From a virus (taxonomy: Duplodnaviria; Heunggongvirae; Uroviricota; Caudoviricetes): a stretch of DNA of 5,379 bases. The notes under the pieces were generated by a model that was not told the DNA's origin, did not search any database, and was given only the letters and a program-made list of their open reading frames with translations. Of this stretch, positions 2,130-4,386 are shown in pieces. Within the stretch, counting starts at the first letter, position 1, and each line of letters opens with the position of its first letter. Location: the IMG/VR virus record IMGVR_UViG_2537562119_000008; one strand, 5' to 3'. Position numbers and translations under genes: made by a program.

Positions 2130-2561
2130 TCAATATCTATTCCTGTAATATCTTTTATCTTTTATCTTTTTCCTTGCAAAGCCTTTTGCTAGTGATTTTG
2201 AAACACTCATAAGTGTACTAATTCCCTCATCCTTAAAGTTTGTTTTTATAGCTTGCCAGACATCCTTTTGACGTAAGTCAGCAATAAAATCATGCCCTCT
2301 TGCTGTCAACCTCAGTGGTACTTCGATCCAACTATATCCAACACCTTCCCCTAACGCTTTGGACAATATATGACCGAACCCAGGTTTTCCATCAACCCTG
2401 ACTATTAATTCGTAGTCACATAATAATCGCATATGGAAAATAAAATCTTGGTCATATCTATTAAAGCCATTATCCTCTAGTTCACTAAGCATCGTGTCAG
2501 GGCCACGAGTTTTTTCGAATGCGATAAGTAGATCTTTTAGATATTGCTGGTCTAATTTCAT
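2130..2561 (-). CDS. Hypothetical protein (143 aa), AT-rich accessory gene with a basic C-terminal tail
   Basis: ORF with ATG start and a strong RBS (GGAGG, 5-nt spacer). Hand counts on two 60-nt samples gave roughly 27-37% G+C, against roughly 50% for a sample in int. The C-terminus is lysine/arginine-rich (KGFARKKIKDKRYYRNRY). I recognise no family with confidence; the N-terminal pattern weakly recalls small phage DUF-type proteins. Confidence 0.6.
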   Translation of the reverse strand: MKLDQQYLKDLLIAFEKTRGPDTMLSELEDNGFNRYDQDFIFHMRLLCDYELIVRVDGKPGFGHILSKALGEGVGYSWIEVPLRLTARGHDFIADLRQKDVWQAIKTNFKDEGISTLMSVSKSLAKGFARKKIKDKRYYRNRY

Positions 2562-2589: not shown

Positions 2590-2928
2590 TTATATCATTA
2601 ATTTTGTTTCGTGCCAGCCTTTGGTCACCCAGCATTGTGAGTCACCATTACACGGGCATGAATTAACAGGAACTCTCTCGCCGCACTTACCGCACCGTTT
2701 TCTGCTGATCGATTTTATACGCCAGCGCACACGTGCATCATCCTGGCGGCTCAGTAACGCGATGTACTCACCAAACTCGCAAGGCGCACGCCTGAAGCGA
2801 CGCGTGGCACAGTTACGCTCCAGCATTTCAATTTCCTGAGCATCAAGTACAAGCTCCAGCTTACGCATACCGGATGATGCTTGCTTGGCTCTCTGATCGG
2901 CTTTGTGCTCTGTTGCTGATTTAGCCAT
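2590..2928 (-). CDS. Cys-rich hypothetical protein (112 aa), possible zinc-ribbon / Ea8.5-like protein
   Basis: ATG start with RBS AGGAAAAG about 8 nt upstream. One hand-counted 60-nt sample gave about 55% G+C, typical of the lambda-like flanks. The C-terminal half has a CxxC...CxC...C cluster (RKRCGKCGERVPVNSCPCNGDSQC). It lies 28 nt upstream of the 143-aa ORF. It is in the approximate position of lambda ea8.5 and of similar size if translation starts at the internal Met21 (92 aa). Homology to Ea8.5 is not verified. Confidence 0.55.
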   Translation of the reverse strand: MAKSATEHKADQRAKQASSGMRKLELVLDAQEIEMLERNCATRRFRRAPCEFGEYIALLSRQDDARVRWRIKSISRKRCGKCGERVPVNSCPCNGDSQCWVTKGWHETKLMI

Positions 2929-2969
2929 TCTGCTTTTCCTGCATCAGGAGAAAGACAATCATGGCGGCG

Positions 2970-3071
2970 CGGATACTTCCGGTATCTTTTTACGCGATAT
3001 TCCCCTTCAATGGCACATACAAGAAGAGAGCCATCAACAGGAGTGATTGAGGAATCGACAACCAGCAACGC
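2970..3071 (-). pseudogene. Remnant of an S24-family peptidase gene (UmuD / LexA / CI C-terminal-domain-like fragment)
   Basis: The minus-strand frame just after a TAA stop encodes LLVVDSSITPVDGSLLVCAIEGEYRVKRYRKYP. This aligns with UmuD [33 protein letters not shown] and with the LexA motif VARIDDEVTVKRL. No upstream coding sequence for the catalytic Ser (GDSM) motif was found in any frame, and similarity is lost after about 33 codons. The supplied 105-aa ORF (2751-3068) starts at TTG and otherwise looks like read-on into the 112-aa gene region. Confidence 0.5.
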
Positions 3072-3121
3072 TTAATTATCTATAGTGTCGTATTTGCTTC
3101 ATAAAATATGGCGAATAACAC

Positions 3122-3159
3122 AAAGCCCGCAGCAGCTCATTGTGCGGGCTTTTCTTATA
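3122..3159. terminator. Hairpin terminator downstream of the 204-aa secreted-protein gene
   Basis: 10-bp inverted repeat AAAGCCCGCA (3122-3131) / TGCGGGCTTT (3143-3152) with an 11-nt loop. The plus strand follows it with TTTTCTT; the minus strand follows it with a weaker TTTGTGTTATT. It lies in an AT-rich intergenic region 3' of the 204-aa gene. Confidence 0.45.
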
Positions 3160-3221
3160 CCTACTTCCTAGAGATAATTCTATGGAGGCATTAAATCAAT
3201 ACTGTCATTGGTAATATCATA

Positions 3222-3836
3222 TTATCTAAAAGTCTTTCCACTTTTAACATCTAGGTATATTCTGTTCGACAACGTCATTCCTCCGCAATATGTGAAATAG
3301 ATGTTTTCACCCTTATTGCTTGATGCCATCCACCCTCCGATTTCCTTAAAATCGCTTTCCGTGCAGACCCCTTCATTTATTAACTTCCTAGCTGCCGAAG
3401 AAAACTCTTTTTTGTATATACGGTAGTCATCAGATCCTTTGATTAAAGTATCATCTCCGCTCGCATTTTCAGCAGGATCTGATGGCCTTTCACTGCTAAG
3501 ATCACTAAGTTTAACCCATTCTGAAAACTTGCCATTAACGATTCCATTTTTTCTTGTGCAGGATTTATTACCTTCTTTAATATATTCGCTTTCCCCTCCA
3601 ACACATGAGGCTGAATATGGCTCAGTTATACGAACCCATTCACCTTTTTTTTCTAGAAAATCTACGCCTTCCCTGAAAAATAGTTTCCCAGCCACTCCAC
3701 ATTTACTTGAAGGGCAGGTATGTCTTTCCGTTCGATCAACAACAACCCATAGTTTTGATTCATTTTTTGCCATTGCCGATGGTATTTGAGATGAGACAAT
3801 TAACGTAAGCCCTAAAATTAGTATTGATTTTTTCAT
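3222..3836 (-). CDS. Secreted (Sec signal peptide) cysteine-containing protein of unknown function (204 aa), AT-rich moron
   Basis: ATG with RBS AAGGAA and a 6-nt spacer. The N-terminus MKKSILILGLTLIVSSQIPSAMA|KNE has a basic n-region, a hydrophobic core and an AxA-type cleavage site, with no lipobox Cys. The mature part has 6 Cys. Hand counts on two 60-nt samples gave roughly 33-38% G+C. Motifs GEWVRI and SEWVKL weakly recall SH3b-like folds. Confidence 0.7.
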   Translation of the reverse strand: MKKSILILGLTLIVSSQIPSAMAKNESKLWVVVDRTERHTCPSSKCGVAGKLFFREGVDFLEKKGEWVRITEPYSASCVGGESEYIKEGNKSCTRKNGIVNGKFSEWVKLSDLSSERPSDPAENASGDDTLIKGSDDYRIYKKEFSSAARKLINEGVCTESDFKEIGGWMASSNKGENIYFTYCGGMTLSNRIYLDVKSGKTFR

Positions 3837-4134
3837 TGTAATTTCCTTTTACTTTTTACAAAGCGTTTAATCATGGCTGATTATCTCTAAGTGTAGTAAC
3901 AGCCTTGTGCGAAACATGTTACCAAATCGCCATTTCAGTGTATCCGCAGTTAGGCTGCCACTTCAAGGATTCCTAATTACATGGTACGTAAGCGTAAAAT
4001 CCCGTTGGTTGGCGGGTAATAACTCTGATCAAATCTCCCTTGTCTTTTGCTCTTACGTATGCAGCTCTTGTGTATTCAACCCAGGCCTCCAGTTCAGCAA
4101 TACGCTTACTTCCATCCGAGATAACACCTTCTAC

Positions 4135-4386
4135 TCACGCTGCTCGTTGAGTTTTGATTTTTGCTGTCTCCAGCTCAACACGCAGTTTCCCCACCGTTAG
4201 CGCAATATCCTCGTTCTCCTGGTCGCGGCGTTTGATGTATTGCTGGTTTCTTTCCCGTTCATCCAGCAGTGTCAGCACAATCGATGGTGTTACCAGCTCA
4301 TGGAAAAGGTCCGCGTCAAATCCCCAGTTGTCAGGCATTGCCTGCTCTGCCGCTTCACGCAGTGCCTGAGAGTGAATTACGCTCAC
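4135..4386 (-). CDS. ea22: Ea22-like protein, N-terminal part (83 aa) ending at an in-frame TGA; likely a disrupted gene
   Basis: GTG start overlapping the stop of the upstream TraR-like gene (GTGA), at the position where lambda ea22 starts. The N-terminus MSVIHSQALREAAEQAMPDNWGFDADLFHELVTP... resembles the conserved N-terminus of Ea22-family proteins as I remember them. The frame continues open for 53 more codons after the TGA (see findings). Confidence 0.5.
   Translation of the reverse strand: MSVIHSQALREAAEQAMPDNWGFDADLFHELVTPSIVLTLLDERERNQQYIKRRDQENEDIALTVGKLRVELETAKIKTQRAA

Follow-up and report, generated by a model that had tools for sequence, protein, structure and literature searches.

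What does a gene for an exported protein do in the middle of the early-left operon of a lambdoid prophage? The question is raised by a 5,379-nt stretch of viral DNA (Caudoviricetes; IMG/VR record IMGVR_UViG_2537562119_000008), hereafter the window, on the minus strand of which a coding sequence with an ATG start occupies positions 3222..3836 (stop codon included) and encodes a protein of 204 aa. The first-pass annotation, made from the sequence letters, had delimited the same open reading frame (ORF), and the ORF list reproduces it exactly. As a whole, our results are best explained by a functional, self-contained moron of the prophage, the product of which, an exported protein composed of an SH3b domain and a C-terminal domain, most likely plays a protective role; our confidence in this explanation, taken in full, is evenly poised. 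Accessory genes of prophages that encode exported proteins are known to have supplied functions of lysogenic conversion and exclusion, and, to our knowledge, very few of the periplasmic proteins of this origin are understood. The gene analyzed here offers a clean test case, being one gene with no partner, with a confidently predicted structure of the product and a family of hundreds of clusters.

Anatomy and export of the 204-aa protein

The anatomy of the protein and its export can be described with high confidence. The first 23 residues, MKKSILILGLTLIVSSQIPSAMA (3768..3836, minus strand), make up a predicted Sec signal peptide, as judged by the hydrophobicity profile and the rule of Ala at positions -3 and -1, and signal peptidase I (SPase I) would be expected to cleave it at AMA–K. 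The leader is tripartite, consisting of the n-region MKK, the h-region SILILGLTLIVSS and the stretch QIPSAMA–K, in which Pro is at position -5 and A-M-A–K at residues 21-23/24; its hydrophobic core peaks at residues 8-11, with the maximum of 3.07 at residue 9. In the AlphaFold model, the predicted local distance difference test score (pLDDT) is below 70 for residues 1-24, and the leader remains outside the fold, which begins at residue 27. All 43 aligned homologs possess a type I signal, a lipobox or an N-terminal transmembrane anchor at the position of the leader: the close relatives have a type I signal ending with A-x-A, in many of the distant ones a lipobox is found instead (LLAGC, LISC, LSAC, LTAC and others), and a few are held by an N-terminal membrane anchor, sometimes with a cytoplasmic zinc ribbon ahead of it. 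The possibility that the 204-aa protein is itself a lipoprotein processed by SPase II was considered and rejected, as the LPAM_1 model scored 14.1 bits against the cut-off of 20, the first cysteine is at residue 41 and the leader has none.

The mature part contains exactly six cysteines (residues 41, 46, 78, 93, 158 and 184), two of which, Cys158 and Cys184, are invariant, while the other four are kept in at least 90% of the 43 homologs; these conserved residues are enough for up to three disulfides, which the protein could form. Since the targeting devices are swappable and the cysteine pairs are conserved, the family is apparently extracytoplasmic. Thus, as far as can be judged from sequence features, both the synthesis of the product with a Sec signal peptide and the invariably extracytoplasmic location of the family are strongly supported. 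The claims of the first-pass annotation concerning a Sec leader with the AMA–K site and six cysteines in the mature part hold good in this respect, the former being backed by the n-h-c pattern, the -3/-1 rule and the family-wide occurrence of export devices, and the latter being extended by the conservation of the cysteines across the homologs.

A compact two-domain fold, comprising an SH3b domain and an alpha/beta domain of ~80 residues, is strongly supported by the AlphaFold model, which was built with the 43-sequence alignment (mean pLDDT 90, above 92 from residue 31 on; predicted template modelling score, pTM, 0.72). The N-terminal domain (residues ~27-115; 3492..3758, minus strand), which includes the cysteine pairs 41/46 and 78/93, forms the SH3b beta-barrel in the predicted structure. 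We consider it to be a genuine SH3b fold, according to the model, despite the sub-threshold score of Pfam SH3_3 (PF08239), which matched residues 40-72 with 16.2 bits against the cut-off of 27 (E = 0.012), and PF08239 is present in several homologs. The weak SH3b-like motifs noticed at the first pass are borne out accordingly as parts of an SH3b fold. Cys41 and Cys46 are located early in the domain, and Cys78 and Cys93 are held by a conserved insertion of ~32 residues (~70-101), which the domain appears to possess in comparison, made by pattern and not by alignment, with what we take to be the SH3_3 consensus. A profile search of the PDB sequences also returned de novo designed TIM barrels (E ~1e-6); these matches were dismissed as spurious because they consisted of several weak repeats (i-E-values ~5 to 110) on one helical segment, SDDWRDLKEAWKKGADILI.

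The C-terminal domain (residues 121-204; 3225..3476, minus strand) is predicted to have the order alpha-alpha-beta-beta-beta and carries the motifs SDD[YF], GGW.KS and YFTYCGG. Its invariants, namely S135, D136 and D137 at the start of a helix, W169, S172, the Y-F-T-Y-C-G-G strand, N191 and the Cys158/Cys184 pair, look more like a disulfide-held binding surface than like the active site of a hydrolase. No Pfam model covers this domain and it is absent from the PDB too, in line with the first-pass annotation, which had recognized nothing in this part of the protein. A search with the domain profile against 1.84 billion representative proteins revealed 528 clusters (E <= 1e-3), 403 of them at E <= 1e-10. 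The domain may be the only one in a protein of ~95-130 aa with a signal peptide, be repeated in tandem or be membrane-anchored, and most often it is located C-terminal to SH3_3, the latter partner being detected in 33 of the 60 sampled proteins (E < 1e-3, best 1.6e-14); single fusions with ankyrin repeats, with IalB and with an Imm_superinfect-type membrane segment were found as well. These sequence comparisons strongly support the view of the C-terminal domain as an autonomous extracytoplasmic module of a widespread uncharacterised family. The Imm_superinfect fusion (P0157) was set aside as evidence of exclusion, since it is one protein among 528 clusters and the domain in question is essentially a membrane anchor.

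The whole protein has a full-length match to phrog_8310 ('unknown function', E = 1.8e-136; the sole PHROG match) and is 100% identical to RefSeq WP_000748282.1 ('hypothetical protein'); the two represent the same family, and their entries hold no annotation of function, domain or localisation. As NCBIfam gave no match to the 204-aa protein, PADLOC gave none at E up to 1 and Pfam SH3_3 remained below its threshold, no well-characterised family was returned, and the opinion of the first-pass annotation that the protein belongs to none is upheld. A literature search found nothing on the protein, on its motif or on comparable SH3-containing prophage exclusion proteins.

Carriers of the gene and selection acting on it

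The gene was found in 133 of 5426 complete E. coli genomes, in copies that are 99-100% identical and are always annotated as a hypothetical protein (WP_000748282.1), and the flanking dksA-like and ea22 sequence occurs in thousands of E. coli genomes. Among 50,697 phage records the protein is encoded by one only, that of Escherichia phage Chlobot, and canonical lambda is thus devoid of the gene, in agreement with the first-pass annotation. The homology search revealed 83 relatives, among them 204-aa proteins of Pseudomonas and Aeromonas with 57-69% identity and more distant ones, with 45-52% identity, in many other bacteria.

Together with the lambdoid prophage, the carriers represent six kinds of element or mobile region. 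In an 88-kb plasmid of E. fergusonii, the gene recurs together with its 142-nt leader (window positions 3220-3978) at 85% identity; the plasmid is P1-like, having a repressor, a recombinase, dut and a theta-subunit homolog, and the 204-aa homolog directly follows an intact humD-like S24 peptidase gene. A 64% homolog is among the four annotated genes of a 5.3-kb ColE1-type plasmid of Citrobacter, which has no phage genes. In an Aeromonas hydrophila prophage, the homolog is situated between a Q-like antiterminator and a holin, near an Eco29kI restriction-modification pair, and in Pseudomonas monsensis, P. aeruginosa and several other Pseudomonas it comes first after the integrase in islands of ~5-6 kb. 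One more homolog lies amid insertion sequence (IS) elements, beside a DruA gene (L020).

The Pseudomonas islands occupy different chromosomal sites and have integrases of 420-499 aa (loci L007 537-6065, L002 6402-11660, L008, L009, L018 6184-11786, L021, L023 and L024). After the integrase and the homolog they encode a set of proteins of ~208-236, ~105, ~130 and 333-337 aa, and one variant has a pRha-like gene. The protein of ~208-236 aa has a weak match to phrog_129 ('transcriptional regulator') and the other co-occurring proteins have no PHROG match, as was the case with the one protein of 333-337 aa that was scanned (L007), for which, as for its counterparts, the source collection records no Pfam annotation. 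The PHROGs thus provided no functional clue to the co-occurring proteins, and the islands may represent an undescribed satellite-like element.

Copies of the gene on large plasmids were rejected as a sign of independent mobility: they stem from fragments of this lambdoid prophage that the plasmids captured along with the neighbouring genes, so that among plasmids only the ColE1-type one and the P1-like phage-plasmid count as independent carriers. The captured early-left fragment of ~4 kb was found in IncA and IncF plasmids of Citrobacter, Klebsiella, Enterobacter and E. coli, e.g., in pA18-1 of Citrobacter freundii (L013) and pECO-cbb3 of E. coli (L014); it lies beside trkG and remnants of lysis genes and is bounded by IS5, IS26 or Tn5403, with arsenic-resistance genes adjoining in one case.

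Selection on the gene is strongly purifying. Comparison of the E. coli and E. fergusonii copies gave a nonsynonymous divergence (dN) of 0.056 and a synonymous one (dS) of 0.749, i.e., dN/dS of 0.075; in more distant copies, synonymous sites are saturated and the length is exactly 204 codons. The 43-sequence alignment contains 17 invariant positions and another 36 that are kept in at least 90% of the sequences, all six cysteines being among these. The ORF is therefore conserved in its relatives, which is what the first-pass annotation had presupposed.

These data bear on the explanation that the gene is a functionless hitchhiker or a decaying remnant brought along with a piece of foreign DNA. 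The fragments ea22' and humD' on either side of it (see below), its passive transfer onto large plasmids inside the prophage fragment and its splitting by IS1 into pieces of 170 and 48 aa in two E. coli genomes (L098, NZ_AP027713.1, 1623-3014; and NZ_OY754443.1) would all suit such an origin. Nevertheless, with dN/dS of 0.075 and a frame remaining intact at 204 codons across genera despite saturated synonymous sites, with so many invariant and nearly invariant residues and with a confident predicted fold, the decay of the gene is rejected, the hitchhiker explanation being effectively refuted by the selection analysis. The IS1-split gene is located inside a degraded copy of the prophage, with a truncated integrase and a second IS1 nearby.

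The distribution of the family is equally relevant to the assumption that the protein is a virulence or colonisation factor, released or exposed on the surface, the SH3b domain of which would bind a host or environmental ligand, as in adhesin- or invasin-like lysogenic conversion. Members of the family occur widely among free-living Proteobacteria of the sea and soil, none of the examined neighbouring genes is a virulence gene, and the plain Sec leader directs the protein to the periplasm in a diderm, with no signal of outer-membrane targeting, of an autotransporter or of a secretion system. Such a role is, in our opinion, highly improbable.

Locus, composition and expression signals

In strain AMSHJX01, the lambdoid prophage lies beside ybhC, in the lambda attachment region. 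Its genes are arranged in the order int, xis, a small ORF, the DUF2513 gene, a 112-aa ORF, a 'DNA repair protein' fragment and the 204-aa gene, after which there follow a frameshifted ea22 fragment, a dksA-like gene, three small ORFs, exo, bet, gam, kil and cIII. The fragment upstream of the 204-aa gene is a truncated ea22-like gene of 83 aa (4135..4386, minus strand), which retains the N-terminal part only (Pfam Ead_Ea22, E = 1.3e-20) and is given in RefSeq as frameshifted and incomplete; the ea22-like homology runs on beyond this ORF to ~4085. Downstream, within an ORF with a TTG start (2751-3068), is a humD/umuD-like (S24 peptidase) fragment (2968..3068, minus strand), 86% identical in DNA to a plasmid humD gene and labelled in RefSeq as 'DNA repair protein, incomplete'.

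The similarity of other E. coli prophages to the window is limited to the part from ~4085 upward (ea22 and dksA-like genes). The unit specific to the 133 carrier genomes is thus ~1 kb long, spanning approximately 3069..4085 (minus strand), with no counterpart in other lambdoid prophages and with a gene fragment at each end, which fits replacement by an imported cassette; this cassette appears to have taken the place of the 3' part of ea22. The first-pass annotation had estimated that the gene begins about where lambda ea22 would end, and the truncated ea22 directly upstream agrees with this. The humD-like gene is linked to the 204-aa homolog in two elements in the opposite order, i.e., as a fragment downstream in the lambdoid prophage and as an intact gene upstream in E. 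fergusonii, and there are hints that the cassette came from a P1-like element via rearrangement.

The composition of the gene is distinct as well: its G+C content is 38.0% (29.8% at third codon positions, GC3), as compared with 45.0% in int, 43.4% in the whole window and 52% in the flanking ea22 fragment, the neighbours int, xis, ea22' and orf112 all falling within 45-52%. Consequently, the AT-richness described in the first-pass annotation is real as a contrast, and its figure of roughly 50% G+C for int is to be lowered.

The gene has a ribosome-binding site (RBS) of its own, as had been claimed earlier: the Shine-Dalgarno sequence AAGGA (3844..3848, minus strand), read from the sequence 7 nt before the ATG, has been retained in E. 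fergusonii. As follows from the match with the E. fergusonii phage-plasmid, the gene is accompanied by a non-coding leader of 142 nt (3837..3978, minus strand). Its identity between E. coli and E. fergusonii is 82%, in comparison with 59% at the four-fold degenerate sites of the same gene (binomial p = 3.6e-9); being more conserved than synonymous sites, the leader is apparently under constraint. An Rfam scan of the window matched no family, and the leader is thus not a known riboswitch or small RNA. It contains a candidate sigma-70 promoter, TTGAAG-N18-TACACT (3937..3966, minus strand; -35 at 3966-3961, -10 at 3942-3937), with 8 of the 12 consensus positions and with both hexamers identical in the E. 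coli and E. fergusonii leaders. A strict scan, requiring at least 9 of the 12 positions, found no promoter on the gene strand, and the site is regarded by us as a weak lead only.

On the other side of the gene, 68 nt beyond the stop codon, RNA folding revealed a G+C-rich hairpin, AAAGCCCGCA...TGCGGGCTTT and then UGUGUUAUU (3112..3153, core 3153-3122, minus strand), with a 71-nt stretch folding at -22 kcal/mol (z = -2.3 versus shuffles). A simple terminator scanner scored the hairpin on the plus strand only, because the minus-strand loop is over the scanner limit and the U-tract, UUUGUGUUAUU, is interrupted. In view of this interruption on the gene strand and of the opposite-strand call, an intrinsic terminator, symmetric enough for either strand, is plausible and not strong; of the hairpin terminator proposed at the first pass, the hairpin itself stands.

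Taken together, the atypical composition, the patchy presence, the discrete junctions and the recurrence of the gene with its leader in an unrelated phage-plasmid, along with the constraint on this leader and the 3' hairpin, support the interpretation of the gene as a moron, which the first-pass annotation had put forward.

As to translation, five of the seven compared homologs start with a codon other than ATG, namely TTG in Pseudomonas (L002, L006), Aeromonas and Citrobacter and GTG in E. fergusonii (loci L002, L005, L006, L012 and L015), which may point to modest translation. The leader of the 204-aa gene contains a mini-ORF of 13 codons, MIKRFVKSKRKLQ (3833-3874, minus strand), the end of which overlaps the start codon of the gene in the sequence ATGA. 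In E. fergusonii, this mini-ORF has the same beginning and an earlier stop (MIKIFSKK), its length not being conserved, and it is probably of no significance.

The position of the gene could also be taken to mean that it serves lytic growth only, being transcribed from pL with N antitermination, absent as a product from the lysogen and exerting a late effect on the envelope, such as tuning of lysis or stopping progeny from adsorbing to debris. Indeed, it belongs to the early-left operon and shares its strand with exo, bet, gam and int, the promoter scan detected no strong sigma-70 site, and the Aeromonas homolog is downstream of the Q-like antiterminator, ahead of lysis genes. However, the settings vary, from early-left in the prophage under study to late in Aeromonas, next to humD in the P1-like plasmid, after int in islands that are not phages and in a ColE1-type plasmid without phage genes. 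Considering also the constraint on the travelling leader and the presence of chromosomal homologs in bacteria with no phage context, we find a purely lytic function quite improbable.

Among the neighbours, the DUF2513 gene (2130-2561, minus strand; 143 aa, phrog_585), two genes downstream, is AT-rich like the 204-aa gene (36.3% G+C, GC3 29.9%) and gives the impression of another imported cargo gene, distinct from the first, within this int-exo region; the two genes travel together in the prophage fragments captured on large plasmids. The 112-aa ORF (2590-2928, minus strand) matches phrog_536 ('transcriptional regulator', E = 7e-48) and resembles, weakly and below the threshold, the NF008671 model of a LexA-regulated protein (E = 0.007).

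Proposed function and comparison with known systems

In 77 species-representative loci, no neighbour of the family members was conserved beyond local synteny in Vibrio and integrases in Pseudomonas, which suggests that the protein needs no dedicated partner. Since carriers as diverse as a lambdoid prophage, a P1-like plasmid, a ColE1-type plasmid and integrase islands profit from the gene, and since its transcriptional class differs from phage to phage, a general benefit to the carrier cell is likelier than participation in one step of phage development. The repeated uptake of the gene, under strong purifying selection, by mobile elements or regions of no fewer than five kinds in Enterobacteria, Aeromonas and Pseudomonas likewise argues for a portable function, useful in any host.

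The protective role may be envisaged as follows. After cleavage at AMA–K the protein would be oxidized in the periplasm, and its SH3b domain would attach it to peptidoglycan or to some other polymer of the envelope, a step assumed from the known roles of the SH3b matches as wall-binding domains of endolysins and autolysins. The C-terminal domain would bind a periplasmic target. Sited at the wall, the protein could then block an incoming wall-active protein, be it a phage tail lysin, an ejection protein, a bacteriocin or a contact-delivered peptidoglycan hydrolase, thus acting as a single-gene exclusion or immunity factor to the benefit of the carrying element or of the host. This blocking mechanism, drawn by analogy with the exclusion factors T4 Spackle and T5 Llp (see below), is offered tentatively, as a possible one. 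A bolder assumption, speculative and in our view unlikely, is that the C-terminal domain of ~80 residues represents a new class of periplasmic effector-blocking module, which is tethered by SH3b, directed against wall-penetrating phage proteins or wall-degrading toxins and spread across Proteobacteria by prophages, phage-plasmids, small plasmids and integrase islands, since it would protect any recipient and require no partner.

The company kept by the family members was assessed with PADLOC on 150 neighbouring ORFs from 15 Gammaproteobacterial loci. A complete HORMA/HORMA/TRIP13 module of the CBASS type (cyclic oligonucleotide-based antiphage signalling system) is near a family member in a Ketobacter metagenome-assembled genome (L032 ~5200-9022), a PDC-S46 candidate defence gene (E = 1e-271) adjoins another in Shewanella canadensis (L046 6814-8991), and PDC-M40B (E = 8e-49) was also detected. 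With the DruA gene (L020) and the Eco29kI pair (L005) added, approximately one-third of the Gammaproteobacterial loci have a defence gene within 5 kb. This association lends some support to protection and is the only further backing for the roles put forward as hypotheses at the first pass, namely lysogenic conversion, superinfection exclusion or envelope modification.

A number of facts weigh against protection. The association with defence genes is modest, suggestive only and in part expected for any cargo of variable islands, and several of the PADLOC matches among the neighbours are generic ones (MotB-like, DinG, SNF2). The 204-aa protein has no sequence match to the known defence, exclusion (SieA/SieB, Imm, Spackle, Cor, Llp) and lysozyme-inhibitor families in Pfam, PHROGs, NCBIfam and PADLOC, its C-terminal domain has no informative structural neighbour, and we found no experiment or annotation linking any member of the family to a phenotype. 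The disruption by IS1 means that the gene is dispensable in the two genomes concerned. As to expression in the lysogen, the promoter match is weak and the location is in the pL operon, which is repressed in lysogens. Finally, in Alphaproteobacteria the distant homologs are lipoproteins encoded on the chromosome in unremarkable surroundings, such as the interval between metW and pheT, and these contexts suggest an ancestral housekeeping role in the envelope rather than one in defence.

Alternatively, the protein might be directed at the host itself: bound to peptidoglycan, it would regulate the wall enzymes of the cell that makes it, serving as their adaptor or activator or inhibiting them as periplasmic lysozyme inhibitors do. 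The robustness or turnover of the wall would change as a result, and mobile elements would carry the gene for general fitness and not for exclusion. Against this, a wall enzyme was never a conserved neighbour in the 77 loci, Pfam contained no match to Ivy, MliC/PliC, PliG or LytM-type regulators, the Gammaproteobacterial clade is almost exclusively on mobile elements, and the structural hints are all below significance. We regard a host-directed envelope factor as rather unlikely and retain a protective moron as the preferred explanation. If the protective role is true, a wall-anchored periplasmic mechanism would be added to the known defences and a function would be given to 'hypothetical' proteins across Proteobacteria; should the protein be a factor of wall homeostasis instead, it would still define a new extracytoplasmic domain.

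SH3b domains are the wall-binding parts of endolysins, autolysins and NlpC/P60 proteins (e.g., SH3b of lysostaphin, the PlyPSA/PlyPH-type ones and the B. anthracis GBAA_2967 domain 9ovi). The 204-aa protein differs from the endolysins and autolysins in that it has no catalytic domain, its own Pfam score is sub-threshold, and its SH3b domain has the conserved insertion of ~32 residues and two family-specific cysteine pairs. Moreover, it is periplasmic in a diderm, whereas the wall SH3b proteins act on the monoderm wall from outside.

Among phage proteins, T4 Spackle (gp61.3) is a periplasmic superinfection-exclusion protein which inhibits the gp5 tail lysozyme (PMC7677548). Like Spackle, the 204-aa protein is small, phage-encoded, exported to the periplasm by a signal peptide and acts alone, a blocking mode of action being only proposed for it. 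The two have no similarity in sequence or fold, as Spackle is all-helical according to the literature and the 204-aa protein combines SH3b with an alpha/beta domain. Furthermore, Spackle is the product of an early gene of a lytic phage and its function is demonstrated, whereas the 204-aa gene is a cargo of temperate and non-phage elements and its likeness to Spackle is by analogy.

Another known case is that of Llp of phage T5, which blocks FhuA (PMC9586334). Like Llp, Bor and Lom of lambda and Cor of phi80 and N15, the 204-aa protein is an envelope protein encoded by an extra gene of atypical composition and patchy presence, with its own RBS and a terminator-like hairpin. Unlike them, the E. 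coli protein is neither a lipoprotein nor an outer-membrane protein and has no homology to those families, and its gene is in the int-exo region, whereas genes of the Bor/Lom/Cor/Llp type are near lysis or tail genes.

A further likeness is seen to Ivy, MliC/PliC, PliG and the Tsi/Tai immunity proteins of the type VI secretion system, which are small, targeted by Sec or a lipobox, often disulfide-bonded, periplasmic and acting alone. Proteins of the Ivy, MliC, PliG and Tsi type bind a wall-degrading enzyme, and immunity genes are often orphans on mobile elements. No homology of the 204-aa protein in sequence or fold was found to Ivy, MliC/PliC or PliG, nor to any other known family of exclusion, defence or immunity proteins, and it may work in a Spackle-like or orphan-immunity-like way by analogy, not by membership. 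In kind, therefore, the gene is a familiar one, a prophage accessory gene for an envelope protein, and it differs from the known systems by the pairing of a wall-binding domain with an uncharacterised effector domain and by its unusual promiscuity among mobile elements.

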